64,000 nt of DNA from Candidatus Colwellbacteria bacterium. Its GTDB lineage: Bacteria > Patescibacteriota > Minisyncoccia > UBA6257 > Colwellbacteraceae. This document shows positions 1,831 to 64,000 of the stretch, one piece after another. Within the stretch, counting starts at the first letter, position 1; each line of letters opens with the position of its first letter. Under the pieces are notes generated by a model that was not told the origin of the DNA, made no database searches, and saw only the letters and a list, made by a program, of their open reading frames with translations. The position numbers and the translations under genes are program-made. Location: the NCBI GenBank assembly GCA_028710275.1, contig JAQTUL010000002.1, forward strand, positions 12,855-76,854. Direction: 5' to 3'.

Positions 1831-2502
1831 ACGGGAAAACATGATTGAATCACGGAGATAATTTTCTTGTTGAGAAGATATCGGTTGTGAAATTGGAAGA
1901 ACAATATCATGCACCGGAAGAGAAAAATCCTCGTCCGAAAAATTAGGAGATGCGAGATTATCATGAGAGAAGACGATTGGAGTCTCAGCTGAGAAGATAT
2001 ACTCTTCTCCCTCAGAAAGTATAGTCATCTTATTCAAACCGAAGAATTGGGGGGTGATTCCTGATCCAAAGAAATCCTGTCCGGGACCGGCAAACGGTAG
2101 AATATCCGATGTCACATCGACCCCTGCCTCGTCACGAATAGCGGTGATCTCTCGTTGAAGAGGACCACGCTTAATAACAAACGGAACCTTATACCACTTC
2201 ATGTTATGATAGATGTAGACAAACTTACTGTTCTTTGAATGTCCTGTCGATTGTGACCAAGAGAGTTCAACCTTCTCGGGACTGTACATCTTCTGGTGAA
2301 TCATAACTTCGAGAGAGGTTTTCAGGATACGAGCGGACTTACATGTTGATTCGATAAAACCCTTGATCGATGAACAGTCAAGAGATGGATTCTCAGAAGA
2401 GACCATCTTTTGAAGCTCATTGAACTGACAGACTTTAGAATAGAGAAATTGGCTCATCCAGGGAAGTGATGCACCGATACATATAGGAATGATATAGTCC
2501 AT
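1822..2502 (-). CDS. hypothetical protein
   Basis: 226 aa minus-strand ORF. ATG verified (revcomp of ..gtccat at 2502). No clear motif. Confidence 0.5.
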   Translation of the reverse strand: MDYIIPICIGASLPWMSQFLYSKVCQFNELQKMVSSENPSLDCSSIKGFIESTCKSARILKTSLEVMIHQKMYSPEKVELSWSQSTGHSKNSKFVYIYHNMKWYKVPFVIKRGPLQREITAIRDEAGVDVTSDILPFAGPGQDFFGSGITPQFFGLNKMTILSEGEEYIFSAETPIVFSHDNLASPNFSDEDFSLPVHDIVLPISQPISSQQENYLRDSIMFSRLE

Positions 2503-11659: not shown

Positions 11660-11686
11660 TTATAAAAATTGATATCTGTAATCATT

Positions 11687-11726
11687 GAATATCGTATGCC
11701 ATTATGTATCATGGCATACGATATTC
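11687..11726. terminator. hairpin GAATATCGTATGCCAT-tatgtatc-ATGGCATACGATATTC after the Rad50-like gene stop; both candidate ATGs of the next gene lie inside it
   Basis: Perfect 16 bp arms. Confidence 0.45.
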
Positions 11727-25563: not shown

Positions 25564-27432
25564 ATGGCTAACGCGACTTCTATGACCACCGTCACTCTCA
25601 ATTTGACCCCGGAACAGTCCCTTTTTCACGGGTCACCAACTCTATTCGAAGCTCCGTATCTTCCTCGTAACATCGAGAACAGATTTTCATGTGAGACTAA
25701 GTTTCCACTCTATTACGCGACAAAGAGTTGTTCTACTATCTCTCCTGGAGAGGGATACTTGTACGAGTATAAGATCTCAGAGTGGGCAAAAAAAGAACAT
25801 GGAGGAATTCCTAATTTCCTTCATCTTCAGGGAAATATTCATGAATCGATGAAACATTATATCGACATGATGCTTCAAGAACCTGAAATTCATCATTTTA
25901 CCGATGACGAGATTCGTCGGAATATGCCATACGGATTTATGTCATCTCGAGTTAATTCTTCACAGAACGATTTGGAACTTGCATGTGTCTGTCGCACAAA
26001 ATACAATGGTATTTATGTACCAGGATATGAGAATCAACTACTGATCTGTGGTAGAGGACGCCCTCAGTGGTTGGAGATTCACAACATCTTCAAAGTCGTA
26101 AAGGGAAAGGATGGAAAGATTACGTCGACGTTATTTCAAACTTTCCCTGATTTTTTCTCGGAGCCAGCGAAAAGAAGTGGAACTCCGGTTCCGTCAGAGA
26201 ATAGATCTTGTAACCTTTACGAGGGAGACAAGCTGTCGTTGGAAGAGATTTTTGGAGAGGATATCTTTAAGAATGATAAAATCGAGACTGATAGCAGTAG
26301 CGGGTATAATTCATCCATTGGAGATATCGATCATATGTTCAACAGTCCATATAACTCACCGACTCGAAAGAATGAAGAAAGAAAAGAGGGAGAACCTGAG
26401 ATTCCAGTTGATGTGTGGGAGCAGATTTGTACTCGTACTGTAGTGGAGAAGACTACGGTCATCAATGGTAAGAAGGTTCGGATTGATGTTGACGGCGCGA
26501 CACCTCGGCTTCCTAAACCTATCCGTATTTCAGACACACTCACAAAGGGAAGTGTGTTTAAACAGTCCACTCTGAAGACTGGCAAGTCTATCGAACAGAA
26601 GCATGAAGAACTCTCTGAAAAGAAGGGTGTATGGTCAGGAAAATCTTACGGAACAGATTCGTGGGATACTGGATCGTGGCATAACGGAGGTGATTGGCGT
26701 GATACTGGATCGTGGGGTAACGGAGGTGATTGGCATAACGGAGGATGGAAGACGAAGTGGAATGATAAGAATGTTGATAAATTCGATGAAGAGGTTAATA
26801 CGGGAGTAGATCCAATCATTAAGTTCTATCGAAATGAAGCTGTCAATAAGGCAAAGAGACGTCTTTCTACAATTTGGAACTGGAGTGATGAGAAGCTAGA
26901 GAGTCAACATGATTTTATCCAGTGGATATTTCCTCTGATTGAGAAGAGTCGTTTCAACTATGATGCTCCTGTCCTTACCAAGCGTTCAATTGAGATTCTC
27001 AGAACAGATAGAGAGATTCAAGAAAACATTAAAGTCTCATTCGATAAGATGTTCGCATTCTATGGTTGGAAGGTTAATGAAACTCTTGATGGAGTTGAGA
27101 GAATGACTATCGAGGTCGAGAAGGATGGTGAAGTTGAGAAGAAGCTTAAGCCGATGGAGTGGCTTCGCCATTCTCACAACTTTGATCGTATCACACGTAT
27201 CATGACGTCGTTGAAACTTTTGGGTCGTACTGACCTGTCTGAGCTTTTCTTCATGGCGTTGTGTCGTACAGCAAAGGGCCCCAACGCTCGAAAGATTATC
27301 GCTTCTTCATTCATCGAGTACTGGCTTCCCACACAAGAACATTTTCTTCCTACCAATGTCCTCGAGGCCTACTGTACCGACATCACCGATCGACGAAAGA
27401 AAAGTAATCGAATCGACTCCTTTGTCTCTTAA
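25564..27432 (+). CDS. hypothetical protein with W/G-rich tandem peptide repeats
   Basis: 622 aa. ATG verified. The repeats DSWDTGSWHNGGDWRDTGSWGNGGDWHNGGW correspond to a tandem DNA repeat near 26640-26750. Confidence 0.5.
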   Translation: MANATSMTTVTLNLTPEQSLFHGSPTLFEAPYLPRNIENRFSCETKFPLYYATKSCSTISPGEGYLYEYKISEWAKKEHGGIPNFLHLQGNIHESMKHYIDMMLQEPEIHHFTDDEIRRNMPYGFMSSRVNSSQNDLELACVCRTKYNGIYVPGYENQLLICGRGRPQWLEIHNIFKVVKGKDGKITSTLFQTFPDFFSEPAKRSGTPVPSENRSCNLYEGDKLSLEEIFGEDIFKNDKIETDSSSGYNSSIGDIDHMFNSPYNSPTRKNEERKEGEPEIPVDVWEQICTRTVVEKTTVINGKKVRIDVDGATPRLPKPIRISDTLTKGSVFKQSTLKTGKSIEQKHEELSEKKGVWSGKSYGTDSWDTGSWHNGGDWRDTGSWGNGGDWHNGGWKTKWNDKNVDKFDEEVNTGVDPIIKFYRNEAVNKAKRRLSTIWNWSDEKLESQHDFIQWIFPLIEKSRFNYDAPVLTKRSIEILRTDREIQENIKVSFDKMFAFYGWKVNETLDGVERMTIEVEKDGEVEKKLKPMEWLRHSHNFDRITRIMTSLKLLGRTDLSELFFMALCRTAKGPNARKIIASSFIEYWLPTQEHFLPTNVLEAYCTDITDRRKKSNRIDSFVS

Positions 27433-28542: not shown

Positions 28543-30252
28543 ATGCCGAACCGACAAGGATTGTCTTCAGAAGACATGGCTTCTCTTTTTTCATCGATGC
28601 GCCCTAATACGATGTTTAACCCTCTCAATATTGTACGTCCAATGGTTCCTCTTAGCTCAGGAAGAATTCCTCTTGAATCAGTTGGTCGAGCATTGGTCCC
28701 TCCTGTTGTTCATTCAGGAGCATCATCTTCTCGAGGAGAATCAAAAGATCAGTATGAACTCAAAGAAGATAATGTTTCACCACCGGATTACATACGTTCT
28801 GATCAGTATGTCGATTATAAAAAATTATGTGATGATAATCTCGAATGTTCTATATGTCTTAATATCATTGATGGAACAGTGGCTATCACAACATGTATGC
28901 ATCGTTTCTGTTCATCATGTCTTTTCGAGTATATGATGAAAAAAGTAGGAAGTGCATCATGTCCCAACTGTAGAGCTTCTATTGACAACCCGGAAGATGT
29001 TATGATCTCATCCGAACTATCAGATATATTGGATAGTTCAGTTATCCGTTGTAAAAATAAAGAGTGTACTGCTGAGCTTCCTCGTAAAGAATATAAGAAA
29101 CATACACAGATCTGTGAGTTCAATAAGAAACAATGTAAGGGGTGTAAGTCTCTCTATTTCGAAAAGGACTTTGAAAGTCATATGGAGGAATGTCTATATC
29201 GAGTTGTGAAATGTAATCTGTGCAATTCATACACTAAAGTCAAGGACCAGAAAACCCATAGAGATGATGTGTGTCCGGGAACAATGATCAAATGTCCTAA
29301 TCAAAAGTGTAACTATATGACGCAGCGTTCTAAGATCAATAGACATAACGCTTCATGTACTTATCGAATGGTTACCTGTTCTAATGGATGTGAATCGATA
29401 TTCGACCATAAGGAACAATCTTTGCATAATGAGATCTGTAATCTTCGTCCTGTGATGTGTGAGTTCTGTGAGAACAATGTTCCATACAGTAAGCTCATTG
29501 ATCATTACAGGCTCTGTCCCAAGAAGCCGGCCGAATGTAAGTGGTGTAAATCCACGATTGTGTTTGGAGATATGTCTATTCACGAAATGAACTGTTTGAA
29601 AAAAATAGTAAAATGTCCCTTGGGTTGCGGTATTGATATTGAAAGAATGGAAACCGTAAATCATACTTCTATCTGTTCGAATAGATACGTCAAGTGTAGT
29701 GACTGCTCTCAACAGTATATGCTATCGAGAAAAGATTATCACGAATCGCTGTGTTCAGAGACAGTCGTGAAATGCCCAGACTGCTCTCAGAAGATCACTC
29801 GGAAGAATATCTATTTTCATTCTCAAAGTAATTGTGAGATGAAGATTGTCGAATGTAAGTATGTGTACGCGGGATGTTCATGTAAGTTTACCAGAAAAAC
29901 TGAGAGCGAACATTACAGAGAGTACAAGGATCTTCATCTTGAGATTCTTGATAAATATATTCAAGAAAAGGTTCACGTTTCTCTTTCCCGTCCGAGAAAT
30001 CGTTTCGAAGACATGCCGGCGTCTTATTTTGCACTTGTCTCTCAACCGGCTGCATCTCCGATACTATCTAGACCTCCCCCACGAGTTGAGAATAGATCTT
30101 TTGTTGATGCTGCAAACGAGTATATTGCTCGAGACGAGGCCTTACACGCTAGTCATCAACGACAGATGGATGCTCTTAATCAGGCGGAATCAGATGACGA
30201 GAATGATGAAGAGTATGAACACGGTCATGATTCTGGAGAAAGATGGGGATAA
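28543..30252 (+). CDS. RING finger plus multiple TRAF-type zinc fingers (putative E3 ubiquitin ligase)
   Basis: C3HC4 RING CSICLN...CMHRFCSSCL...CPNCR. This is followed by at least six C-x2-C-x(n)-H-x(n)-C modules spaced as in TRAF/SIAH-type zinc fingers. Acidic C-terminus. Confidence 0.7.
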   Translation: MPNRQGLSSEDMASLFSSMRPNTMFNPLNIVRPMVPLSSGRIPLESVGRALVPPVVHSGASSSRGESKDQYELKEDNVSPPDYIRSDQYVDYKKLCDDNLECSICLNIIDGTVAITTCMHRFCSSCLFEYMMKKVGSASCPNCRASIDNPEDVMISSELSDILDSSVIRCKNKECTAELPRKEYKKHTQICEFNKKQCKGCKSLYFEKDFESHMEECLYRVVKCNLCNSYTKVKDQKTHRDDVCPGTMIKCPNQKCNYMTQRSKINRHNASCTYRMVTCSNGCESIFDHKEQSLHNEICNLRPVMCEFCENNVPYSKLIDHYRLCPKKPAECKWCKSTIVFGDMSIHEMNCLKKIVKCPLGCGIDIERMETVNHTSICSNRYVKCSDCSQQYMLSRKDYHESLCSETVVKCPDCSQKITRKNIYFHSQSNCEMKIVECKYVYAGCSCKFTRKTESEHYREYKDLHLEILDKYIQEKVHVSLSRPRNRFEDMPASYFALVSQPAASPILSRPPPRVENRSFVDAANEYIARDEALHASHQRQMDALNQAESDDENDEEYEHGHDSGERWG

Positions 30253-30326: not shown

Positions 30327-31805
30327 ATGGCAGCGACATCTTCAACCGCCTCTTTTCCCTACTTCTCATGCATTCTCGCGAGAGATTCTGTTGATGGTGG
30401 TATCGGTTACAAGAACGCTCTTCCGTGGAAACTTAAAGATGATATGAATCATTTTAAAATGATTACAACGTTCAATACTGAGAAGAAGGAGAATGTTGTT
30501 ATTATGGGTAGACTTACATGGGAGGGAATGGGTGGAAAACCGTTGTCGAACAGAATCAATATCGTAGTCTCTAAGACACTAGAGAATGTTGAGGGTGTGA
30601 CATTGGCCTCCTCTCTAGATGATGCACTACAGAAGGCTCTAACTTTCGGTAAGGGGAGATACATCTTTGTGATCGGTGGAGCAGCTCTCTATCGAGAAGC
30701 GTTCAATCATCCACAAATGGAGACTGTATATGAGACAAGGGTTATGTATTCTGGAGCCAAGTATGACGCATTCTTTAATACATATGTCCCTCTGGATTTC
30801 GAACCTATTTCTTTTCGAGAAGTGAAGGGAGAGAACTTCAACCTTCAATTTATTCAACACAATAAGAGACGAGAGAGTTCTGAGTACGCGTACCTCTCGC
30901 TTGTGAAGGAGATTCTTGAGACTGGAGAGGAGAGAGGAGATCGCACTGGAACTGGTACTATCTCGGTATTTGGACCTCAAGTGTCCTACGATATTAGAGA
31001 GTTCTTCCCTCTTATCTCAACAAAAACAGTTGGATTGAAAACGATTTTCGAAGAGCTCATCTGGATGTTGAGAGGTCAAACGAATAACAATACCCTAAAG
31101 AGAAAGAAGGTGAACATCTGGACTGAGAATTCAGACTCTCATCACAAGAAGATGGTGAAACGACAGATTGAGAAGAATGGAGTTTCGACCCATGTAGATG
31201 GTGATATGGGCCCGTTGTACGGCTATCAATGGAGAAGTTTCGGTGGCGATTATAAGCCGGTTGTCTATCCAGAGAATGCAACTGAAGACGAGAAGATTGC
31301 GATCGAAGATAAGAGACATATTGGAGAGGGTTTTGATCAGATTGCATGGATCATAAATGAGATTAGAACTAATCCTGAATCAAGACGAATTAAGCTTTCC
31401 GCATGGAATCCTAAAGCGATTGATGATATGGCTCTTCCGCCTTGTCACGATAGTTGCACTTTCTACGTTAGTAGAAAGAAATATCTCCATTGCAAACTCC
31501 ACATGCGAAGTAATGATATCTTTCTCGGTGCTCCATTCAATATCGGACAGTATGCTCTTCTTACCTATATGATTGCATCTATGACTGGTTATGTTCCTGG
31601 TAATCTGATTCACACAATTGATGACGCTCACATCTATTCTAATCATGTTGAACAGATGAAACAGCAACTCCTGAGACCGGTGAGAGATCTTCCCACATTG
31701 AAGGTTCTTCGAGTTCCAGAGAAGATTGAGGAATTTGAGTTCTCGGATTTCAAGTTGTCAGGAAGTAATCCTCACCCATCTATCAAGGGGGATATGGCTG
31801 TTTAA
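30327..31805 (+). CDS. DHFR-TS: bifunctional dihydrofolate reductase-thymidylate synthase
   Basis: The N-terminal DHFR fold has LPWKLKDDMNHF and VIMGRLTWE. The C-terminal TS has PLYGYQWRSFGG, ALPPCHDSCTFYV and DAHIYSNH. 492 aa. ATG verified. Confidence 0.93.
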   Translation: MAATSSTASFPYFSCILARDSVDGGIGYKNALPWKLKDDMNHFKMITTFNTEKKENVVIMGRLTWEGMGGKPLSNRINIVVSKTLENVEGVTLASSLDDALQKALTFGKGRYIFVIGGAALYREAFNHPQMETVYETRVMYSGAKYDAFFNTYVPLDFEPISFREVKGENFNLQFIQHNKRRESSEYAYLSLVKEILETGEERGDRTGTGTISVFGPQVSYDIREFFPLISTKTVGLKTIFEELIWMLRGQTNNNTLKRKKVNIWTENSDSHHKKMVKRQIEKNGVSTHVDGDMGPLYGYQWRSFGGDYKPVVYPENATEDEKIAIEDKRHIGEGFDQIAWIINEIRTNPESRRIKLSAWNPKAIDDMALPPCHDSCTFYVSRKKYLHCKLHMRSNDIFLGAPFNIGQYALLTYMIASMTGYVPGNLIHTIDDAHIYSNHVEQMKQQLLRPVRDLPTLKVLRVPEKIEEFEFSDFKLSGSNPHPSIKGDMAV

Positions 31806-38455: not shown

Positions 38456-38911
38456 TTGAATATTTCCGCTTTTCAATATTCCTTTTCACCACCATCTCAC
38501 TCGTCTTCGACACTTTCAACCATGTCATCTACATCCACTAAGATCAAGAACTGGTACCTGTTCGAGAACGGAAAGATTCTTTGTGGAGATATCATGACAG
38601 CGAACCAGAATTACACGTTCTTCCAGTTTGGTATCGCCAAGTACACTCCATTCTCTTCGTACGAAGAGGAAGTGAAGACTATTGTGAAGGAAGATGGAAA
38701 GAATATTGAGAAGATCATTAAGAGAAAGGTGTACATCCCAGCACTTGTCGATGGTGTCACCAAGTCAGGAATCCGGATTCAACTCTCTCTCTTCGATTCA
38801 GAGAAGGATAGATACTTTCAGACTACCGACTTCTTCAAGGTTCTCGCTGAGAAGCATGGATCTAAGAAACAGGAGATTAAGAAGGATGAGTCCGATGAAG
38901 ATGATGAGTAA
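38456..38911 (+). CDS. hypothetical protein with acidic C-terminus
   Basis: The track start is TTG. The real start is probably the ATG at about 38522 (MSSTSTKIKNW). Confidence 0.45.
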   Translation: MNISAFQYSFSPPSHSSSTLSTMSSTSTKIKNWYLFENGKILCGDIMTANQNYTFFQFGIAKYTPFSSYEEEVKTIVKEDGKNIEKIIKRKVYIPALVDGVTKSGIRIQLSLFDSEKDRYFQTTDFFKVLAEKHGSKKQEIKKDESDEDDE

Positions 38912-38981: not shown

Positions 38982-39455
38982 TTAAGAGAAGATACGAAAG
39001 AATAGAAAACTTAGAACAGAGGATGCAATCCCCGTCTTTGCAGACATCAACATGATGAATGGTGTATAGGTTCCAGCTAATCTAAGCACAGGAAAAAGAT
39101 AATCCTTTATGTAGGAGTATTTGCTATAAGGAATTTTTACACCCTTGATAGTACTGATCTCGTTTGAAACCAGAATCATACTCTCATTCATCTTATCAAC
39201 GTTATCACCTAATCTATTTACATTTTCGTTTTGTATAACCATGAGTTTATGCATATCGATAACCATACTTTTGAGGTACTCCACCTCCTTTAACAGATCA
39301 CAGTGTCGTTTGTGATCAATCACTTCATTTACAATAAGCCATTTTCTCTCATCCCCGGTATTTGAGTCATCAAGATCATCAATCTCGTCTAACACTTCAA
39401 TCTCGGTATGATCAATTAATAGCTGTTCATTAGAGACACATTCGTTAGTCGACAT
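38982..39455 (-). CDS. hypothetical protein with C-terminal hydrophobic segment
   Basis: 157 aa. ATG verified (MSTNECV). Confidence 0.45.
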   Translation of the reverse strand: MSTNECVSNEQLLIDHTEIEVLDEIDDLDDSNTGDERKWLIVNEVIDHKRHCDLLKEVEYLKSMVIDMHKLMVIQNENVNRLGDNVDKMNESMILVSNEISTIKGVKIPYSKYSYIKDYLFPVLRLAGTYTPFIMLMSAKTGIASSVLSFLFFRIFS

Positions 39456-41956: not shown

Positions 41957-44900
41957 ATGGCTGCTGAGAAATCGATCAGTTCTTTATCAAACTCCTTCAA
42001 GGAGATAAATCTCGAGGGTAACAACGACAGTGTGATACAATCTAAATTTTTAGATCTGGTTTTTAACAAAAAGAGAAATATTTTGTTATCATCCCCTGGT
42101 GGATGTGGTAAATCGTGGCTTATTATTAACATCATAAAAAAGGAAGCTGAACAAAGAGGTCTATCAATATCATTGACGTCAACCACAGGAGTCTCTGCGT
42201 TATCAATTGGTGGAACTACAATTAATAGATGGGGGAGTATCAAATTGGGAAAGGAATCGATTATGACTATTTGTACAAGAATAAAGAATAATAAGGAGAC
42301 ATTAAAAAGATGGAATGAATGTAAAATTTTAGTTATAGATGAAATATCTATGATGGGAGTAAAAACATTTGAATTATTAGATAATGTGGGTCGAAATATA
42401 TGTGAATCAAATTTACCTTTCGGTGGCAAACAATTAATATTATCAGGTGATTTTTTACAACTACCTCCCATCGGAGATTCCTTTATTTTTAAATCTGAGA
42501 TATGGGATACTTTTAATTTCAGATTTTTCAGATTAACGACCCCGAAGCGATATCCTGATATCGATCATTTTAATATGCTCATGAATATGAGATTGGGAAA
42601 TACTTCTAAAGATGATACTAAAAAAATGTATGGTAGAGTTGACGCATATATCGATTATATTCGTAAAGGATTAGAAAAGAAGGAAAAAATTAAACCAACA
42701 AGAATTTATTCCCTTAAAAAAGATGTTGAAACATTTAACCTAGACGAACTCTCTAAATTGGAAGGTAAAACTATCGTCTATAATTCTATTGACAAGTTCT
42801 CCAAAAAATTATCTGAAAAGGAAAAATTAATCGACAAGAATGAGCGAAAAAAGGATAATATATCAGGAAAGGATGTTATGGACTGTACAGAATTTTTAGA
42901 TACAGTTGTGAATAGGCAGATACTTTTAAAACCGGGAGCACAAATAATGTTGACATATAATTTAGCCATAGATATTGGGTTAGTTAATGGGTCTAGAGGT
43001 GTAGTATTATCTTGTGATCAAGACAGTATCAATGTATTATTTAAAAATGGAATCACAACCAGAATAGGGTATAATAAATACGAATTTGACGATGGTAAGA
43101 TTCTCATGGTAAGATATCAACTTCCAATAATTCTGGCGTGGGCAACGTCGATACATAAATGTGTCGATGAAAATACATTAATAAGCACAGAGAATGGGTT
43201 GATAAGAATCAAAGATATATCAACTCATATGATGGGGAAAAATACAAATATGATTCATCCTGATAATTCTATATTACATATATCAGAAAAAATATACGGT
43301 CGCAATGGAATTAATAAAACATCTGAAATATATAAAGGGTGTGTGGAAAAATCTTTAAAAATAACAACCAAATTAGGATATAGTATTGAGGGGTCACATA
43401 AACATCCTATATTAGTTTACGATAATGGAAAAGAGGTATGGAAAACTCTTCCATTTATCAACAAGGGAGATTATATTGTATTCCGAACAGGATTGTTCTG
43501 TGGTCGAAAAGATAATATTACAACTGATATGTTTACTATTGAGCAATATAGAGAAGGAAGTAAAAAGATATACTCTATTCCTCAAACAATAGATGAAGAT
43601 ATATGTTATGTTATCGGATTATTAGTAGGGGACGGAACATATTGTTATTCTACAAACGGAGATTATAAAATAGGATATGTAACATTAGATAACGAACTAA
43701 TCAATAAATTTAAATCTGTTATGGATACCAAATTCAAAACCGATGTTAGAATTTTCGAAGATAATGGCGCCCAACGCTGTATTGTAAGTTCCAAAATGAT
43801 TAGAAACTTTTTTGAGATATTCGGTCTTTCGTATACGAAAAGAACCGAGAAAACGGTTCCATGGTGTATTCTTGAGAATACAGTGGAATGCCAAAGAAAA
43901 TTCATAAAGGGATTATTCGATACGGACGGGGGTATAAATAATTCGTGTATACATTTTACAAATACGTCAGAAAAAGTTATTGATATTACTCAAATTCTTC
44001 TACTCAACAATGGTATTATATCTTCTAAAAGAGTTCTCAGAGAAGCAACCGATAAATGGAGTAAAGTATTTAGAATTCAGATATGTGGAATAAATGCTCG
44101 AAAATATATGTCTACAATTGGATTTTTCTGTTTACGTAAACAGAAACAAGGTATAAAACAGTACGGTAAAGACCCATCGATACAATTGATCCCAAAAACT
44201 AATATATGCAGTATTCCCGATTCTTATACTATTACGAAAACTATTAAAGATCAGCTTACAACATCAAAAAGAAATGATTCATCATTTCATAGTTTCATCT
44301 ATAAACGTGTAGGAAGAGGTGATCTCAATTCGACTATATGTTACGATCAGTTACCATATTTAATTCAAGAGTGTAAAAATAGAAATATTAAATTAGACCC
44401 TAAAATCCAAGAGTGGGTAAATAATGGAATATTTTTTGATAGAGTCGATTCAATTGAAGAAGGTTTGTGTCAGATGTATGATATCGCAGTTCCGGAAGAT
44501 CATACATTTATAGCGAACGGGATTGTAAATCATAACTGTCAAGGAGCGACCCTTGATTATGCTATCATGGATCTTGGATCATCTATCTTCGCTCCGGGAA
44601 TGGCGTATGTCGCCCTTTCTCGTGTCAGAACTCTTGATGGTCTACTATTGAGTAGCTTTGTCCCAAAGAAGATCATCGCGGATCCAGAGGCTCTAGAATT
44701 TGAGAGAATGATTGAAGCTCAAGAAAAGGATGAGGATATCGATTACGAGATCGAGAAAGGAGGTGGAATGCCTCAAGAGGAGGGGCGCCCGAATAAACAA
44801 GTGAAACAACAAGAGATTACTGTTCTTCGAGGAACAATGTGTGGTGAGACCATGATGGTTGATAAGATTCCAGGAGTAGACAAACACATTGTCGCATTCA

Positions 44901-45112
44901 TTATGGCAGATTGTCCAGAGATCTACGAGATTATGGATCCTGATATGTGGAAGAAACTCAAGGGATTAGAAGCACCATTGAAAGTTGATAATGAGACACT
45001 GTATAGTAAGCTCTTAGAACTTCTGGAGTTGGAGAGCGGAGAAACTGGAGACGAAGATGATAACGAACCTGGTGGATTGATAGACTGTGAGGAGGATGTG
45101 TTAGAGTTGTAG
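41957..45112 (+). CDS. PIF1-like SF1 DNA helicase interrupted by an intein
   Basis: Walker A SSPGGCGKSW, LVIDEISMMG, LILSGDFLQLPPI. The motif ATSIHK is split from CQGATLDYAIMDLG...MAYVALSRVRTLDGLLL by a 459 aa Hint+LAGLIDADG insert. Confidence 0.88.
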   Translation: MAAEKSISSLSNSFKEINLEGNNDSVIQSKFLDLVFNKKRNILLSSPGGCGKSWLIINIIKKEAEQRGLSISLTSTTGVSALSIGGTTINRWGSIKLGKESIMTICTRIKNNKETLKRWNECKILVIDEISMMGVKTFELLDNVGRNICESNLPFGGKQLILSGDFLQLPPIGDSFIFKSEIWDTFNFRFFRLTTPKRYPDIDHFNMLMNMRLGNTSKDDTKKMYGRVDAYIDYIRKGLEKKEKIKPTRIYSLKKDVETFNLDELSKLEGKTIVYNSIDKFSKKLSEKEKLIDKNERKKDNISGKDVMDCTEFLDTVVNRQILLKPGAQIMLTYNLAIDIGLVNGSRGVVLSCDQDSINVLFKNGITTRIGYNKYEFDDGKILMVRYQLPIILAWATSIHKCVDENTLISTENGLIRIKDISTHMMGKNTNMIHPDNSILHISEKIYGRNGINKTSEIYKGCVEKSLKITTKLGYSIEGSHKHPILVYDNGKEVWKTLPFINKGDYIVFRTGLFCGRKDNITTDMFTIEQYREGSKKIYSIPQTIDEDICYVIGLLVGDGTYCYSTNGDYKIGYVTLDNELINKFKSVMDTKFKTDVRIFEDNGAQRCIVSSKMIRNFFEIFGLSYTKRTEKTVPWCILENTVECQRKFIKGLFDTDGGINNSCIHFTNTSEKVIDITQILLLNNGIISSKRVLREATDKWSKVFRIQICGINARKYMSTIGFFCLRKQKQGIKQYGKDPSIQLIPKTNICSIPDSYTITKTIKDQLTTSKRNDSSFHSFIYKRVGRGDLNSTICYDQLPYLIQECKNRNIKLDPKIQEWVNNGIFFDRVDSIEEGLCQMYDIAVPEDHTFIANGIVNHNCQGATLDYAIMDLGSSIFAPGMAYVALSRVRTLDGLLLSSFVPKKIIADPEALEFERMIEAQEKDEDIDYEIEKGGGMPQEEGRPNKQVKQQEITVLRGTMCGETMMVDKIPGVDKHIVAFIMADCPEIYEIMDPDMWKKLKGLEAPLKVDNETLYSKLLELLELESGETGDEDDNEPGGLIDCEEDVLEL
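43160..44536 (+). mobile_element. intein with LAGLIDADG homing endonuclease domain, inserted in PIF1 helicase motif (IHK|C...HN|CQG)
   Basis: Starts with Cys (CVDENTLI) at codon 402 and ends with IVNHN followed by a +1 Cys. Two LAGLIDADG blocks (VIGLLVGDGTY and IKGLFDTDGGIN). Removing it restores the ATSIHK-CQGATLD helicase motif. Confidence 0.8.
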
Positions 45113-51432: not shown

Positions 51433-52107
51433 ATGAAGGGGTTATCGATAGATATCGGGGTGCATAATATGGCCTTCTACATAGAGGAGTTTGATCAATC
51501 AAAAATTAAATCTCTTAACTGTCCCAAGACCCAACGATATGATGATAATGGAGCGGCAACTGAGAAATTTAAAACTCAGGTACTGAAACATGTGTACACG
51601 AATGGAAAGAATGTGTTTCTTGATAAAGCTGATCTATCACAAGAGAAGGGAGTGGCTTTTGATGTTCATCTATTTATAAATTTAACATCATATCTGGATA
51701 GTCATATCAAAGAGTTTGATGACTGTTCATTCGTTATCATCGAACAACAGTTGAAGACCAATCCGATGGCGCAACGACTAGAACAGCATTGTGTGTCTTG
51801 GTTCACATTTACTTATCTCGATACAAAAGAGATTGTTATCTTCCCATCAAAGAACAAAACACGTGTTCTCGGCGCTCCGAAAAAGGTACCTCATCGAAAG
51901 ACGGGGAAACCATCGAAGATGACCAAATCTCAAAGAAAGAAGTGGGCGTGTGACGAGGCATCTAAAATACTTACCCTAAGAGATGATATGGTATCAATGA
52001 AACATATCTTTGTTACCAATAAAAAAAAATCAGACGATCTGAGTGATGTAATTTCAATGATGCAAGCCTTTAAAATTAAATGTTTTATTGATGGGGTATT
52101 AAAGTGA
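51433..52107 (+). CDS. poxvirus A22-like RuvC-family Holliday junction resolvase
   Basis: N-terminus LSIDIGVHNMAF (as in A22 ICAFDIGAKNPA). Second acidic block FVIIEQQ. C-terminus DDLSDVISMMQAF (as in A22 DDVADSFNLAM). Confidence 0.65.
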   Translation: MKGLSIDIGVHNMAFYIEEFDQSKIKSLNCPKTQRYDDNGAATEKFKTQVLKHVYTNGKNVFLDKADLSQEKGVAFDVHLFINLTSYLDSHIKEFDDCSFVIIEQQLKTNPMAQRLEQHCVSWFTFTYLDTKEIVIFPSKNKTRVLGAPKKVPHRKTGKPSKMTKSQRKKWACDEASKILTLRDDMVSMKHIFVTNKKKSDDLSDVISMMQAFKIKCFIDGVLK

Positions 52108-52160
52108 TATCATTATATCATCTATCTCTAAAGGTCCTATCAAAAATGATAACAACCTAA

Positions 52161-52201
52161 TTAGCCATATCGATTATCACAGTGATAATCGATATGGCTA
52201 A
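52161..52201. terminator. 41 bp perfect palindrome TTAGCCATATCGATTATCAC-a-GTGATAATCGATATGGCTAA after the resolvase gene; overlaps the start codon of the next gene
   Basis: 20 bp arms, the longest dyad in the window. Confidence 0.5.
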
Positions 52202-53418: not shown

Positions 53419-56400
53419 ATGTCGATCGAATTTGAAAACGATTCTGAAGATGATATCGAATTGGATGTTGCAGTTACCGGTGCAAGAGTAGGAGATGTGA
53501 TTATCGGTCAGCAGAAGTGTACGATGAAAGCGATGCTTCGTGTGTATACATCTCCTATTTTCCCGATGAAGAAGTATCTGGATGAATTACGAGATGATGA
53601 TGAAAAGTGGGAGAGATTTCTCGCGAAGCTCTCGTCACTCTCATTCTTCGCAAACATGACTCGGGATGAGCGTGAAGAGTGGATGGATGAGAATGAGACA
53701 ACTGTAGAGTTTATTGGGGACGACCGTGAGGGAGGCGAGAAGAGTGGAAAAAGAAAAGAAACGCATATCGAGATTCTGGATGTAGGAACTTCGACATTGA
53801 CCTCTCAAGTGGAGTCAGAGGATCTGGAGGTACTCATGGAGGGTAAGGAAGAGGGATTCTATTCGGTTGAGGAGATTGAATCTCGATTCCCGAGAAAGCC
53901 GGGAAGTAATGCGCGAAAACATACTCTCTTCTTTATGAAACAGTTTTGGGTTGTGGTGACAGATTACAAGATCGTTACGTCGTTCGATGGAGTTGTATTC
54001 GATATCGAAAATGGAGAGATCAAGTCGAACTGTGAAACAGAGGATGGAAAGGAGTTGATTGTTATTGACGGAATCACAAAGCAGTACACGTTCGGAAAGA
54101 AAGATGAATGGGTGAAAAAGTCAGAACAAAAACTCGCGTTTCTCGTTTCGAAAGAGAGATTCGATCTCTCAAAGATAGATGAGATTGTAAAGGAGACATA
54201 TAAGGAGTTGTCAGACGTCGATGGCGATATGAATGATACGATCCGGAAAATTAGAACAGACTTGAGAGAATACACAGCCGGGTCGTTCAAATCTCTTATG
54301 CAGAAGATCATTCGATTCGGTCCGGATAAGGTATCACTTCTGGATGGAGAGATTGTGGATGGAGGAATAGTCATTCTCGTTGTTGTTGCGATGCTCGCAC
54401 AGAATCCAGGATCATTCGTTCCTGATATTCAGAGATATGTTACAGGACTTGAGTCTGTAGCAAAACGATTGGGGATCATCTGTGGATTCGAAGACTCGTA
54501 TACACCTCCGGAACGAGTGAATGAATTGGTGTCGTTGTTCTCTGGCGCACTTCTTGCTCAGAGAGTAAGATCATGGAAACCGAATAGACAAACTCTAAAA
54601 CTCTGGATGACAACTGCGTATAAATCGCTCAATGAGCGGAGAGCTATCGATTACGAGAAGGAGTCATCTAATCTCTCAATTACAGACTGGTGGACTCTAT
54701 GTCATAAGAAGGGATTGGATATGAAACCGTACGCTATCTCGGAGAAGTTGAGTCCGATAAAAACGTGTAGCGCGATTCTAGATACTCTTAGGTCGTTCGA
54801 GGGAGATATTGGAATGGCTCGACATATTGCATCAGTTTATCCGAAGTGTGAACTTATAGAATGTGATAGAACACATGAGGTTGTGATGCCTCTGTGTCAC
54901 GGAACAGATCAACATTGGGCTGCAGGGTTCATCTACTTCTTCACTCCGAAAACTATTCTTCAGAATAAAGGAGAATCCTCACCGTTCGATAAGATATTCA
55001 CTCGTGTGTTTCAGGAGGTGACCGGATTCAATCCTCGAAGAGATGAGATTGGAGAAGACTTTGAAGATGATGAATTTGTGAAGGAGACGCGGAGATCGCA
55101 GATGTTGTATCTAGTAGCAAAACAGAACAAACAGACAAAGAGAAAAATCCTCAAACGAGAACATTACAAGAGTAGCTATCAGTTGAACGATTCATGGTTG
55201 GCTGGAATGGTTAGTGCTATAGAGATTCCAGGAAGTCCGGCAACTATTGTGACTCTTCGTCCAGAGAATATCTATCAGCTTATCGCAATCAGAAAGCCGT
55301 CTCGTAATATGGCAGAGAACATCACTCCCGAAAGAGAGGAGTACTCGAAGAAGACTGCAAAGGAGATGTTGAAGAATGGAATAAAACTAAAGGGAACACA
55401 TCCTCCATCGGAATTTTTTAAAGGTGCATCAGTCAAACTAGTTGATGATGAGTATATTATCATTTCAGCAGATGGTATTTCGATGACATGGGAGGATGCA
55501 AGAGATATCGATATCTCTCTTCCATATCACAATGCTGTAGATAAGAATATAGAGAATTCTATTTCTCAGTGGGGAGAAGGTATTGAGATCAATGCGTTTG
55601 AGAAACTTGATAAGCTCATTGCAAAAACCAACACAAAGGTAATGTACCGTGTCCTTTCGTATATCGCAAACTATAAGAAGGAGTTTGAGATGAATAGAGT
55701 TAGTCGAGATGGAAACGGAACTTATCAGAGTGTCAGTCTTAATGATGTTCGTGCTTATCAGTTCATTCTCACTCTGAGTCAACTCTTTCCTGCAGCATTA
55801 CGACCGGTTGAAAAATCGCCTCAGAAATTCCTAGTTCCAGTTGGACCATTACTGTGGAACATTGTTACAAAGATCAAGGGATTCTTGTGTAAGCCGGAGG
55901 ACGATGATGGATGGGATGAAGTAGAGATTAAGGATTCCTTAGAGAGAGTTGAGTGGACTCATCAGAAGGAGACTACAGAGGAGATGATCAGGAACTTCAA
56001 GTCGGGAACGAAAGGAAACTTCTTATGGCTGCGCGTCGGGCTTGGGAAGTGCCTCCACCCAGATACTAAAGTTTTGTTATGGGATGGGTCCATGAAACGC
56101 GCGGAAGATGTACAAGTGGGTGACAGACTTATAGGGGACGACAATACGTATAGAAATGTACTGACTACATGTACCGGTGAAGAGGAAATGTTTGAAATTT
56201 CACAAATCAAAGGTGATTCTTATAAAGTAAACAGATCTCATATTCTGTCTCTGAAGTTTTCAGGACATAAAGGATATTATTGGAGTGAGTCTTATCATAG
56301 ATATTCTGTCACTTGGTTGGATAAAGAGGAGGTGAAACGAAAAACTAAAATCTTTACGGTTAGCCAGGTATATAAAACGAAAGAGATTGCTTATGATACA

Positions 56401-58389
56401 ATGATGCAATTTCGATCTACAATTCCAGACGATGATATTATCGATATCTCTGTAAACGATTATCTCTCTCTTCCTCAAAATTTTAAGAATGAATTGAAAG
56501 GTTTTAAGGTAGGGGTTGATTTCCCTTCACAAATTGTTTTTATGGATCCTTATTTATTGGGAGTATGGCTTGGTGATGGATACTCAAATGGATCCGGATT
56601 TACTAACATAGATGAAGATTGTATTAATTCTTTCGTGAAAGAAATAGAATCTATGGGGTGTCATATCTATAGAAAAAAATCAAAGGGAGAAGATACAATT
56701 TCCTATGCTGTACGAGGTATTTATGAAAATAAAAAGAGAAAGAGAAACCATTTTCTGGATATTATAAGATACTATGGAATGTATAAAAATAAACATATCC
56801 CTAAGGACTTTTTAATTAATGATAGAGAAATTAGATTGCAGGTTTTGGCTGGATTGATAGATACTGATGGATATTATAACGATGGATGTTATGAGATAAT
56901 ACAAAAAAGAAAAGAGTTATCGGATAACATTTTGTACTTGGTTAGATCATTAGGATTTAACGCTACACAAAAAGAGGTTCAAAAAACATGTACAAATTCT
57001 ATACATGGAAGAATAACAGGTACTTATCATAGGTGTATATTCAGTGGAGAAGGAATAGATCTTATTCCTTGTAAAATTGAAAGGAAAAGAGCACCTGAAA
57101 GAATGCAGGTGAAAGATGCATTGAGTACAGGAGTTACAGTTAAGAGTATAGGGAATGGTAAATATTGTGGATTTACTATCGACGGAAATAGTAGATTTCT
57201 TCTTGGAGATTTCACGGTGACTCATAATACCTTAATCGTAATGAACTTTCTCTCGTGGTTGAAAAGTATGAAAAAACTCTCAAAGTATATTCTCTACACA
57301 CTCCCACCGTCCGCGATTGAGAGTGTTGTACATGAGATTCAGGCGTTTGGATTAGAGATCAACTATATCATTCCGCTGAAGAGTATCAAAGGTAAGAAGA
57401 TTCCGAAAGGAGTAACGGTTACTCAGGAATGTGTTCTCGTTCCGTATGCGGTGAATATCATTGCACACGACCATTTGCGGCGATGTAGCGACGAACTTCT
57501 CAGTTATGCAAGCGAGTGTACATTCCTGGTCGATGAGGTTCATAAGGGATTGAATGAGACAAAGAGAACTAGTACCCTTCTCGATATTGCTCGTCTTTCA
57601 AGAATATTTGTAGCCTTTACAGGAACACCAGTGATCGACAACAAGATCTATAAACTCATCTGGTGGTTGGAACAGATTGTTGAGTTTGAGGTCAATCTCG
57701 GAAACTTCTGGGTGAGTGCAAATTCGATGGTTGCGAGAAAGATCTCGACAGGCGTGAGAGTGATTCGAAAGGAGGTGGTAGCTAAATTCAAGGATGATGA
57801 ACTTTCCGAATACAAAAAACTTGTTCCAGTTGCAATGGGAGGAGAGAATAAGTATGCGTCGAATACAGACTTCAACGATGCGTACAAACTCTGTTGTAAC
57901 GTGACAGCGAGTAGACGAATGATTGAGGAGACAATGGCGGCGTTGGGTGAAGATAAAGGAGTCATGTTGGTCGCGCAGAATAGATCTCATCAAGATCGTT
58001 TGAAAGATATGCTTGTTGATGAGGGAGTGAAGGAGAAGGATATCTTTATCTTGACTGGAAACAATAGTATATTCTTGACGGATGAGGCTGTGAAGAAGAA
58101 GATCATTCACGATTACAAAGTTGTTATCGTTCCGATGAACAAACCTGAAGGATACACATTGACAAGACTAACAGTTATGGTAACGTGTGTCTATCCGTCT
58201 AACGAAGCAACTCGTGAACAGATCGAGGGTCGTATCAATCGTATTAGTCAGGCTGCGGAAGAGATTGAAATTATCGTGGTACACTGCGGAATTCTCACTT
58301 ATATTCTAAAGAATCATAATCAAGCAAAGAGTCTGAGTATCGCGTTGAGTGATATGGCAAAGAAACTGGAGGGTGTGAAGATTGCGTAG
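53419..58389 (+). CDS. D6/D11-like (SNF2/DExH) SF2 helicase interrupted by an intein
   Basis: The 1656 aa ORF has a Walker A split as RVGLGK|[intein]|TLIVMNF. Downstream are FLVDEVHKGLN (DExH) and QIEGRINRISQ (motif VI). The host protein is about 1263 aa without the insert. Confidence 0.75.
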   Translation: MSIEFENDSEDDIELDVAVTGARVGDVIIGQQKCTMKAMLRVYTSPIFPMKKYLDELRDDDEKWERFLAKLSSLSFFANMTRDEREEWMDENETTVEFIGDDREGGEKSGKRKETHIEILDVGTSTLTSQVESEDLEVLMEGKEEGFYSVEEIESRFPRKPGSNARKHTLFFMKQFWVVVTDYKIVTSFDGVVFDIENGEIKSNCETEDGKELIVIDGITKQYTFGKKDEWVKKSEQKLAFLVSKERFDLSKIDEIVKETYKELSDVDGDMNDTIRKIRTDLREYTAGSFKSLMQKIIRFGPDKVSLLDGEIVDGGIVILVVVAMLAQNPGSFVPDIQRYVTGLESVAKRLGIICGFEDSYTPPERVNELVSLFSGALLAQRVRSWKPNRQTLKLWMTTAYKSLNERRAIDYEKESSNLSITDWWTLCHKKGLDMKPYAISEKLSPIKTCSAILDTLRSFEGDIGMARHIASVYPKCELIECDRTHEVVMPLCHGTDQHWAAGFIYFFTPKTILQNKGESSPFDKIFTRVFQEVTGFNPRRDEIGEDFEDDEFVKETRRSQMLYLVAKQNKQTKRKILKREHYKSSYQLNDSWLAGMVSAIEIPGSPATIVTLRPENIYQLIAIRKPSRNMAENITPEREEYSKKTAKEMLKNGIKLKGTHPPSEFFKGASVKLVDDEYIIISADGISMTWEDARDIDISLPYHNAVDKNIENSISQWGEGIEINAFEKLDKLIAKTNTKVMYRVLSYIANYKKEFEMNRVSRDGNGTYQSVSLNDVRAYQFILTLSQLFPAALRPVEKSPQKFLVPVGPLLWNIVTKIKGFLCKPEDDDGWDEVEIKDSLERVEWTHQKETTEEMIRNFKSGTKGNFLWLRVGLGKCLHPDTKVLLWDGSMKRAEDVQVGDRLIGDDNTYRNVLTTCTGEEEMFEISQIKGDSYKVNRSHILSLKFSGHKGYYWSESYHRYSVTWLDKEEVKRKTKIFTVSQVYKTKEIAYDTMMQFRSTIPDDDIIDISVNDYLSLPQNFKNELKGFKVGVDFPSQIVFMDPYLLGVWLGDGYSNGSGFTNIDEDCINSFVKEIESMGCHIYRKKSKGEDTISYAVRGIYENKKRKRNHFLDIIRYYGMYKNKHIPKDFLINDREIRLQVLAGLIDTDGYYNDGCYEIIQKRKELSDNILYLVRSLGFNATQKEVQKTCTNSIHGRITGTYHRCIFSGEGIDLIPCKIERKRAPERMQVKDALSTGVTVKSIGNGKYCGFTIDGNSRFLLGDFTVTHNTLIVMNFLSWLKSMKKLSKYILYTLPPSAIESVVHEIQAFGLEINYIIPLKSIKGKKIPKGVTVTQECVLVPYAVNIIAHDHLRRCSDELLSYASECTFLVDEVHKGLNETKRTSTLLDIARLSRIFVAFTGTPVIDNKIYKLIWWLEQIVEFEVNLGNFWVSANSMVARKISTGVRVIRKEVVAKFKDDELSEYKKLVPVAMGGENKYASNTDFNDAYKLCCNVTASRRMIEETMAALGEDKGVMLVAQNRSHQDRLKDMLVDEGVKEKDIFILTGNNSIFLTDEAVKKKIIHDYKVVIVPMNKPEGYTLTRLTVMVTCVYPSNEATREQIEGRINRISQAAEEIEIIVVHCGILTYILKNHNQAKSLSIALSDMAKKLEGVKIA
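56050..57228 (+). mobile_element. intein with LAGLIDADG homing endonuclease domain inserted in helicase P-loop (GLGK|C...HN|T)
   Basis: Begins with CLHPDTKVLLWDG (Hint block A) and ends with FTVTHN followed by a +1 Thr. LAGLIDADG blocks LLGVWLGDGYSNG and LAGLIDTDGYYNDG. 393 aa. Confidence 0.8.
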
Positions 58390-62675: not shown

Positions 62676-63008
62676 ATGAAAACCTTTCCTGATAAACTAC
62701 GTCCAGAGAATAGAGAACGATTTGTAGCTGAATATCGATTCAATCGAGAACTCTGTAAACTAAGACAGAGAATCGTCGATTATATGTATTCTGGAGATAA
62801 TAAGGGATTCGACCTTAAATCGTCTACAGACGGTAACGGACAATATGAGTATTCAACAATAGATCGTGAACTTGTAGATTCCGCGTGTAGAGAACTTCAT
62901 ACTCTTGGATGGAATACGGAATTAGCGTACGGAGAAACCACGCTTTTCATATTCAAGAATCGTTCAGAGCTTCCAATGATGAGTGATATGCAAGAGATCG
63001 ATTCGTAA
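62676..63008 (+). CDS. hypothetical protein
   Basis: 110 aa. ATG verified. Confidence 0.4.
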   Translation: MKTFPDKLRPENRERFVAEYRFNRELCKLRQRIVDYMYSGDNKGFDLKSSTDGNGQYEYSTIDRELVDSACRELHTLGWNTELAYGETTLFIFKNRSELPMMSDMQEIDS

Positions 63009-63240
63009 AGATTTATAATATTTACTGTATTATAAATATGTCAAAACTTGCACCCATAATTATGTTATGATGATGTTGTATTATGGTCTTAGTTTTGGGT
63101 GGATGTACATGTCAGAAGACAGGAACAGGATGGAGAATATAATCTCTATTCCCACACATACAAATTGATTATATTCTTATTCAAGAGAATATAATCACTC
63201 CTTCTCAAAAACCCACAGAGGAGGTTCCAACTTTTCAGAT

Positions 63241-63648
63241 ATGGCTACTCCGACAACTCACCTCCCGACCCGTATGTCGTATTACTCTCCAGTGGATTAT
63301 GGAGAGCGATATCACTATGTACATCCTTCTCTTCCAGGTATTCCTCCATCGTCTTACAATCCTCCCGCCCCAGGTGATAAGCTTTATGAAGTCAGTATCA
63401 AGGTAGAGGAGGTGAAGTCTTCTCTCCACCAAGCGATCGATAAGACTATTGCTCGTGGAGAACAACTTGAGGAGACTGAACGAAGGGCTCAGGAGCTTGA
63501 GAACAACTCCAACCGTTTTTATCGAGGAGCCCGTAATCTCAAGTGTATGTTCTGTAAAAAGAACGCGCGAATGATCGGATGTTGTCTATTTGCTCTTGCA
63601 CTTGTGATCTTCACAATCGTTATGATCGCAAAGTCGTATTCGAATTGA
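63241..63648 (+). CDS. synaptobrevin/VAMP-like R-SNARE, tail-anchored
   Basis: Pro-rich N-terminus. IDKTIARGEQLEETERRAQELENNSNRFYRGARNLKCMFCKKNARMIGCCLFALALVIFTIV aligns residue by residue with the VAMP2 SNARE motif ([58 protein letters not shown]), including the zero-layer Arg and the C-terminal TM helix. Confidence 0.6.
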   Translation: MATPTTHLPTRMSYYSPVDYGERYHYVHPSLPGIPPSSYNPPAPGDKLYEVSIKVEEVKSSLHQAIDKTIARGEQLEETERRAQELENNSNRFYRGARNLKCMFCKKNARMIGCCLFALALVIFTIVMIAKSYSN

Positions 63649-63668
63649 GAACTATAACGTTAAAATTG

Positions 63669-63696
63669 AATAAATCCTATTGTAATAGGATTTATT
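63669..63696. terminator. hairpin AATAAATCCTAT-tgta-ATAGGATTTATT 21 bp after the SNARE-like gene stop
   Basis: Perfect 12 bp arms. Confidence 0.5.
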
Positions 63697-64000
63697 CACC
63701 CGTTTATTAATCGATATCGATTCTGATATGCACACTCTCGTTAACTTCACCAAGAGGGAGAGGATCTGTGTCGGTAAGCCTGGTGAGGAACCGGTCTTTC
63801 AGATTCTCAAGGAGATGAAGTCTCGTTTCCAGTGGGATCTGGAAACTGATCAGATCGAACTCGTTGATTCAGAGAATCTCCAGAGTATGGGATACGCGTC
63901 AATCGATGGAGATGATGACGGGAGAGATACCAACACAGAGGAGAAGAAGCAGGATGATGGTATGAAACGAGAGGTATTTCTTGATCGAGGGTCGGAATTC

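Follow-up and report, generated by a model that had tools for sequence, protein, structure and literature searches.

A 64,000-nt stretch of contig JAQTUL010000002.1 (assembly GCA_028710275.1, positions 12,855 to 76,854 of the forward strand), here called the window, encodes a 135-amino acid (aa) protein of the SNARE family close to its right-hand end. All coordinates below are window positions. We conclude, at a probability of about 0.7, that this protein is a functional brevin-type R-SNARE of an uncultured Nucleocytoviricota-like giant virus of a eukaryote, and that the contig was mis-binned into the metagenome-assembled genome (MAG) of a bacterium of the Candidate Phyla Radiation (CPR). A sequence-only reading of the same DNA had called the gene a virus-encoded synaptobrevin-like R-SNARE. 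Its placement among the R-SNAREs or synaptobrevins is supported by the profile score, an unbroken heptad register, an invariant zero-layer arginine, a tail anchor and zero Q-SNARE matches.

The open reading frame (ORF) list confirms a coding sequence of 135 aa with an ATG start at 63241..63648 on the + strand, stop codon included. The sequence-only reading had pointed to the Pfam Synaptobrevin profile (PF00957), and the match is significant at 65 bits (gathering score (GA) 26.4, E = 5.6e-18), with protein residues 46-130 covering profile positions 3-87 of 89. Pfam finds no longin domain in the protein, and only 45 residues precede the motif. By this domain make-up it is a brevin, that is, a short R-SNARE that lacks a longin domain and carries a short, predicted disordered N-terminal extension. 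The identical protein (P0001) is already deposited at NCBI as "synaptobrevin family protein".

A PDB sequence search with the 135-aa protein returned R-SNAREs only (VAMP2, VAMP3, VAMP4, VAMP7, VAMP8, Ykt6, Snc1 and Nyv1). VAMP2 ranked first in this full-length search, but the VAMP2 entries include the transmembrane domain (TMD). When the search was limited to the motif (residues 44-104), the order became VAMP4 (25.8 bits), VAMP8 (24.5), Ykt6 (22.7), VAMP2/3 (20.6), Snc1 (18.7) and VAMP7 (17.5), with zero Q-SNAREs even at E <= 10. The protein is therefore firmly R-type and not specifically synaptobrevin-2-like, the score margins being too small to assign a subtype or a trafficking step. The likeness to VAMP2 claimed by the sequence-only reading holds as an ungapped alignment, and it does not hold as a specific relationship, since the motif by itself matches VAMP4, VAMP8 and Ykt6 at least as well. 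An assignment as a VAMP2 orthologue was rejected on the same scores and because ARGEQL and KCMFCKKN replace the ERDQKL and KRKYWWKN of VAMP2. A fold search with the AlphaFold model gave no match in the PDB and a best E of 6 in BFVD; it is uninformative because the model is a single long helix.

The SNARE motif spans residues 48-100 (63382..63540, +) and comprises 16 layers. In the HMMER alignment, residues 48-~120 pair gap-free with VAMP2 residues 32-~104 at an offset of 16, which bears out the 53-residue stretch that had been aligned to the VAMP2 SNARE motif from the sequence alone. Layer positions of VAMP2 were transferred through this alignment. Layers -7 to -1 are occupied by L48, V51, V55, V58, L62, A65 and T69, the zero layer by R72, and layers +1 to +8 by L76, T79, A83, L86, S90, F93, A97 and L100. 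Averaged over ten sequences of the viral clade, Kyte-Doolittle hydropathy at the 15 non-zero layers is +2.61, as against -2.9 to +0.39 for registers shifted by 1-3 residues and a mean of -2.14 at non-layer positions. The heptad hydrophobics thus run in an unbroken register, with no shifted register exceeding +0.39. Both points on which the sequence-only reading had staked itself, a profile match to the synaptobrevin family and an intact heptad register, hold.

The zero-layer arginine is R72 (codon CGT, 63454..63456, +), which lies within ARGEQL and aligns with VAMP2 R56. We take R56, in LERDQKL, to be the zero layer of VAMP2, with the numbering cross-checked against W89/W90 and the Q76-F77 toxin site. 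The sequence-only reading was right that a zero-layer arginine is present and wrong about which residue it is; it lies in TIARGEQL. It had named the arginine of TERRAQEL; that residue, R82, aligns with VAMP2 R66. Its pairing of TERRAQEL with DDRADAL stands as an alignment column, and this column has no zero-layer status, as VAMP2 R66 sits between layers +2 and +3. R72, F93 and L100 are invariant in 15/15 aligned sequences, a nematode synaptobrevin among them, whereas R82 varies R/K/K/K/R in the close family.

The motif is preceded by an N-terminal extension (residues 1-45; 63241..63375, +) that is rich in Pro and Tyr and is predicted to be disordered from the AlphaFold model. Its 10 Pro and 6 Tyr agree with the Pro-rich N-terminus described earlier. 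The extension carries a conserved S-Y-N-P-P motif, of which Y39, P41 and P42 are invariant in the close family. In the AlphaFold model, which has a mean predicted local distance difference test score (pLDDT) of 70.9, residues 1-28 have a pLDDT below 50 and no secondary structure appears before residue 46. One continuous helix then runs over residues 46-134, with a pLDDT of 91-92 in the 111-130 blocks.

A juxtamembrane linker connects the motif to the membrane anchor (residues 99-110, NLKCMFCKKNAR; 63535..63570, +). Here the HMMER alignment to VAMP2 reproduces the pairing proposed in the sequence-only reading (ARNLKCMFCKKN; NLKCMFCKKN). Cys102 and Cys105 are specific to the clade and stand where VAMP2 has R86 and W89. 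They belong to a di-cysteine linker signature, LKCxFCK, that is conserved in the viral clade, and the TMD starts with a Gly-Cys that is likewise clade-specific. Cys102 and Cys105 may possibly be palmitoylated. The transmembrane tail anchor (residues ~111-130; 63571..63630, +) is predicted from hydropathy and from the AlphaFold helix, and is followed by a 5-residue lumenal tail, KSYSN (63631-63645, +), with no CAAX. The maximum Kyte-Doolittle 19-mer in this C-terminal hydrophobic segment reaches 2.88, and together with the continuous predicted helix it substantiates the tail-anchor helix that had been suspected from the letters alone. As far as sequence can tell, every feature of a fusion-competent tail-anchored R-SNARE is present.

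The protein belongs to a family with close members. Four close homologues (63-80% identity) all carry a precomputed PF00957 match, and syntenic SNARE copies in the same identity range come from several independent metagenomes. A second tier of homologues (P0096-P0100, E from 1e-27 to 1e-40) ranks ahead of the broad mass of cellular brevins. An exhaustive profile search gave 3,252 matches at E <= 1e-3, and the named ones among them are synaptobrevins. The nearest named relatives are metazoan synaptobrevins; a second search for named relatives is biased, as a nematode sequence was part of its query alignment. With identity to named cellular proteins of only 25-35%, the comparison points to no particular donor or host lineage. 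On the viral side, two contigs of giant-virus MAGs (GVMAGs) encode SNARE relatives, and outside the clade the best viral-MAG relatives share 29-38% identity with the window protein. No named viral SNAREs appeared among the homologue matches. The single SNARE sequence gave no matches against IMG/VR and the GTDB genome collection, nor did the family alignment against metagenome contigs.

Synteny around the SNARE gene is kept in related contigs (L001-L005, L017 and L018). Conserved neighbours are a 108-110-aa gene upstream and a ~180-aa gene downstream, found in several independent samples including that of the more distant P0100. About 12 colinear genes at 37-82% identity are common to L002 and the window. 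The upstream neighbour in the window, a 110-aa gene (62676..63008, +), is present with the SNARE gene in every related contig by tblastn. It is 82-85% identical in L002, L004 and L005 and 34% identical in the giant-virus MAG L006, has a 108-aa counterpart upstream of P0100 in L017 and L018, and has no Pfam match. Nei-Gojobori ratios of nonsynonymous to synonymous substitution rates (dN/dS) for the SNARE gene are 0.138 and 0.124 in two pairs with dS of 0.9 and 2.0. Three of the other four pairs are saturated at synonymous sites, and the remaining one, L002-L017 (dS 1.11), gives 0.52. Judged by these alignments, the SNARE gene is real, vertically inherited and maintained by purifying selection in a clade of related viruses.

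The related contigs also carry a copine gene (Ca2+-dependent membrane-binding, with a vWA domain) about 8 kb downstream of the SNARE gene, and a conserved AAA ATPase of 575-604 aa about 2-3 kb downstream. This copine and AAA ATPase region of the relatives (L004 9038-9976; L002 12371-14185; L004 4677-6404) corresponds to a part of the window genome that lies beyond the window end.

The remainder of the window resembles the genome of a large DNA virus. Gene prediction gives 61 genes and a coding density of 90%; 50 of the genes lie on the + strand, and introns are not evident. Matches to tRNA and Rfam families, rRNA included, are absent from the window, as are bacterial marker or RNA genes, and the phage collection gave no match to it. 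Shine-Dalgarno (SD)-like tetramers precede only 2 of the 61 genes, where 7.4 would be expected by chance, and are thus depleted. The cumulative GC skew climbs monotonically over all 64 kb.

The gene content includes a VH1-type dual-specificity phosphatase, NUDIX, RNase T, NT5C, a Dam methylase and several SF1 and SF2 helicases. A bifunctional dihydrofolate reductase-thymidylate synthase (DHFR_1 + Thymidylat_synt, 492 aa; 30327-31805, +) has the protist/plant-type arrangement. Further + strand genes encode a 569-aa protein with a RING domain and three TRAF-type zinc fingers (28543-30252) and a 622-aa protein with an OGFr_N domain (25564-27432). A PIF1-like helicase (41957-45112, +) has an intein at about residues 437-860, recognised by its LAGLIDADG and intein splicing domains. 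Its orthologue in L002 extends over 617 aa up to the locus end, with no intein domain recorded.

A 1,656-aa SNF2/DEXH helicase (53419-58389, +) also bears an intein, a Hint/homing-endonuclease element of 393 residues (878-1270) that interrupts the Walker A motif (VGLGK|C...VTHN|T). Once spliced, the helicase falls into a large family of proteins of ~1,250-1,330 aa that are intein-free and widespread in metagenomes and giant-virus MAGs. Relatives are found on IMG/VR GVMAG contigs and on viral contigs of up to 505 kb, where their neighbours include an Rpb1 fragment, a eukaryote-type topoisomerase IB, XRN, Bro-N, a ~1,250-aa capping enzyme and an ATP-dependent ligase. The single helicase sequence gave no matches against IMG/VR. 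Members are also present in MAGs that bear the labels Marinicaulis and 'PVC group bacterium', and the 96.5-kb contig labelled Marinicaulis additionally carries eIF-5/eIF-2B, ATG8 and ERCC4 genes. The presence of the family in these MAGs indicates that giant-virus contigs are repeatedly mis-binned into bacterial MAGs. Copies in the Planoprotostelium fungivorum and Nowakowskiella assemblies are probably viral insertions. Overall, a viral origin of the contig is highly probable, with the order unassigned, and the Colwellbacteria label is almost certainly a binning error.

Signals around the genes conform to this picture. A perfect hairpin with a 15-nt stem and a 2-nt loop lies 18 nt past the SNARE stop codon (63667..63698, +) and is likely a transcript 3'-end signal. 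Perfect hairpins of >= 10 nt occur within 100 nt after the stop codon of 22/60 genes (37%), with stems of up to 21 nt; the control frequencies are 0.3% in coding and 0.7% in shuffled sequence. Such a hairpin rule has been described in Mimiviridae and Pithovirus (PMC4402537). The hairpin sequences differ between genes (further examples at 11683-11728 and 52159-52201), and the convergent genes at 38522-38911 (+) and 38982-39455 (-) have one hairpin in common.

Upstream, AAATTGA (63162..63168, +), 79 nt before the SNARE ATG, is a candidate promoter core. The element 'ACAAATTGATTAT' is conserved by the SNARE gene in L004 and L002, and L017 has a variant. The window has 41 copies of AAA[T/G]TGA, of which 20 share the strand of a gene and precede its start codon by 30-108 nt (19 genes), mostly by 39-69 nt; AAAGTGA copies cluster at -39 to -65. 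Example positions are 221, 13303, 18571, 47732 and 63162. The 20 copies observed within 120 nt upstream of starts compare with about 2.3 expected, and the motif is promoter-like. AAA[T/G]TGA resembles the Mimiviridae early motif AAAATTGA and is not identical to it. The exact octamer AAAATTGA was also considered as a lineage marker and was rejected, given 9 copies in the window against about 10 expected; what holds is the positional bias of the shorter AAA[T/G]TGA.

The spacer between the 110-aa gene and the SNARE gene contains a second hairpin with a 12-nt stem (63166..63197, +). From the alignment of the spacers of L002 and L017, from which the arms were read off, its structure is kept with different sequence (L002 arms ATTATTTCTTT / AAAGAAATAAT; L017 arms TTTTTATAAA / TTTATAAAAA). 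It could be either the terminator of an upstream (pseudo)gene or a part of the SNARE 5' control region. The same spacer holds a decayed remnant of a small membrane-protein gene (63038-63142, +). The remnant reads MSKLAPIIML, two in-frame stops, CCIMVLVLGGCTCQKTGTGWRI and a final stop, and about 80 codons are deleted. In L004 the gene is intact, as a ~110-aa ORF running from MSSLVPILILCFCC to CTCQKTGTGWRI and a stop.

We propose that the viral R-SNARE would be translated in the host cytosol. Being tail-anchored, it would enter its target membrane after translation, either a host endomembrane or one that is drawn into the viral factory, and at that site it would zipper with host Qa, Qb and Qc SNAREs via its 16 layers into a four-helix bundle, with R72 at the ionic layer. 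Vesicle fusion would thereby be redirected to viral needs, most plausibly in endosomal, trans-Golgi network or endoplasmic reticulum (ER)-derived traffic, and could serve membrane supply for virion assembly or control of phagosome/endosome maturation. The redirection of host fusion is a plausible function.

Several observations weigh against a functional R-SNARE of a giant virus. NCBI lists both the SNARE and the intein-bearing helicase under 'MAG: Candidatus Colwellbacteria bacterium', a CPR lineage, on a 90,576-bp contig. Pfam, applied to the 61 genes predicted in the 64-kb window, finds no capsid, PolB, A32 or VLTF3 but only an A22 match below threshold and an SNF2-family helicase. (Two genes, at 1822-2502 (-) and 51433-52107 (+), show weak links to virus families: a DUF5772 domain at 37 bits, above its cut-off, and an N-terminal match to the poxvirus A22 Holliday-junction resolvase at 18.2 bits, short of the GA of 22.) Pfam likewise finds no Q-SNARE, NSF, SM, Rab or other trafficking genes in the window. 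The AAA ATPase near the SNARE gene in the relatives was considered as an NSF and rejected, as it matches only PF00004 and generic Cdc48/p97-type Walker-A regions. Two substitutions may bear on fusogenic strength: the basic/Trp juxtamembrane patch of VAMP2 is replaced here, and most members of the clade carry Thr at layer +2 in place of the Leu of VAMP2. Because the window lacks a capsid, PolB, A32 or VLTF3 hallmark, viral identity rests on context. The 'virus-encoded' part of the sequence-only reading draws its support from giant-virus-type gene content, from the signals and from relatives on giant-virus MAGs, not from a capsid or polymerase hallmark.

If the NCBI label were right, a Colwellbacteria bacterium or its phage would encode a SNARE-like effector. 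SNAREs do exist in Legionellales, and at NCBI both the identical protein and the helicase with the intein carry the Colwellbacteria name. We nevertheless regard this as extremely improbable, given the depletion of SD-like motifs (2/61 against 7.4 expected), a window that lacks tRNA and rRNA and has no match in the phage collection, and the eukaryote/giant-virus-type gene content with helicase relatives on giant-virus MAGs. The helicase family in the Marinicaulis and 'PVC group' MAGs shows such mis-binning to be recurrent, and a TMD in combination with a missing CAAX is the opposite of what is typical for bacterial SNAREs. It is also very improbable that the contig comes from the cellular DNA of a eukaryote or from an endogenized giant virus, which would make the SNARE effectively a host gene or a fossil. 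This would agree with the helicase family in the Planoprotostelium fungivorum and Nowakowskiella assemblies and with metazoan synaptobrevins as the nearest named SNARE relatives. It sits poorly with 90% coding density, no sign of introns and 50/61 genes on one strand, and equally with the 3' hairpin rule, the upstream motif and the helicase inteins. The SNARE itself is 25-35% identical to named cellular proteins as against 63-80% to syntenic metagenome copies, with a dN/dS of about 0.13; and in an intact integrated virus, the SNARE gene would still be viral.

Other alternatives accept the viral gene and differ in what the protein does. It could be an inhibitory decoy (i-SNARE) that binds host Q-SNAREs non-productively and blocks fusion, for example on a phagosome-lysosome or antiviral route. 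The change of the VAMP2 Trp-Trp/basic patch to Cys/Phe and the Thr at layer +2 might weaken C-terminal zippering and so favor a decoy. Yet the full-length motif is continuous with the TMD in a predicted single helix (46-134), which is the geometry for force transmission, the 16 layers and zero-layer Arg are conserved under purifying selection, and known bacterial decoys are usually devoid of a TMD. We consider a decoy unlikely. A core structural or entry component is appreciably less probable than that; it would fuse the virion internal membrane with the phagosome or act as a dedicated fusogen that builds factory membranes. Such a role is suggested by the fixed synteny, the clade-wide purifying selection and the clade-specific, possibly palmitoylated di-cysteine juxtamembrane region and, if true, would be the first case in which a SNARE serves as a viral fusion protein. 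Marginally less probable again is packaging of the R-SNARE into the lipid membrane inside the virion. Vertical inheritance and fixed synteny across the viral clade, which differ from the sporadic pattern of most viral SNAREs, would be in keeping with packaging, and the tail anchor would suit an ER-derived virion membrane. The upstream element resembles the Mimiviridae early motif, a point about timing and not about packaging; as virion proteins are made late as a rule, an 'early' promoter is a poor fit to a packaged protein. Moreover, the Mimivirus SNARE was undetected in virions, and the authors of that report dispute a fusogen role, most giant viruses being without SNAREs (PMC9546365).

The preferred reading, a functional R-SNARE of a giant virus, has close precedents. 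About 80 giant-virus SNAREs, R-SNAREs among them, were described in 2022 (Khalifeh, Neveu & Fasshauer, Traffic; PMC9546365). Most have a TMD, most are singletons and most are too divergent to place, and some form SNARE complexes in vitro; R-SNARE examples come from Emiliania huxleyi viruses (EhVs) and Bodo saltans virus (PMC9546365). Subversion of host vesicle traffic is the reading offered for giant-virus SNAREs generally (PMC9546365). A 2025 study found synaptobrevin in Imitervirales, Pandoravirales and Pimascovirales (PMC11915834). Like the giant-virus R-SNAREs, the protein described here is eukaryote-derived, has a C-terminal TMD, is encoded on a large DNA virus genome and is too divergent for a donor or trafficking step to be assigned. 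As in the EhV cluster, related sequences are grouped in related viruses. It differs from the published giant-virus SNAREs, as compared by description, in its own LKCxFCK linker, its SYNPP motif and the bacterial name on its deposit.

Among cellular proteins, the architecture is that of VAMP2 and VAMP8, with a short unstructured N-terminus, a 53-residue R-SNARE motif, a linker and a TMD. The ungapped alignment, the zero-layer Arg, Phe at +6 and Leu at +8 are common to cellular brevins, and the zero-layer Arg lies in an aligned RGE motif as in Ykt6. Unlike the cellular brevins, to which it is 25-35% identical with no clear orthology, the protein has Thr at layers -1 and +2 and a Tyr-rich N-terminus, and unlike VAMP2 it has C-M-F-C in place of the WW/basic juxtamembrane patch. 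A further parallel comes from Legionellales, whose SNARE-like effectors include R-, Qa-, Qc- and Qbc-types (LseA is one example) and are pathogen copies of eukaryotic SNAREs with a presumed role in traffic subversion. Most of these effectors have no TMD, many bear a CAAX box, and they depend on a type IV secretion system (PMC9546365), whereas the protein studied here has a TMD, ends in KSYSN with no CAAX and is encoded in a genome that lacks bacterial translation signals.

The class to which the 135-aa protein belongs was already published in 2022, and the protein is a new example of giant-virus SNAREs. Since virus-encoded SNAREs and their likely role in traffic were part of that publication, no new question is opened. 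Taken at face value, the CPR label would imply SNAREs in Patescibacteria; the evidence favors a giant-virus contig that was mis-binned. Among the catalogued giant-virus trafficking genes, where most SNAREs are singletons, these brevin-type R-SNAREs now form a well-defined clade with vertical inheritance. Its clean conservation (zero-layer Arg, full layers, LKCxFCK and SYNPP) makes the protein a good candidate for biochemistry that would ask whether giant-virus SNAREs drive or block fusion.

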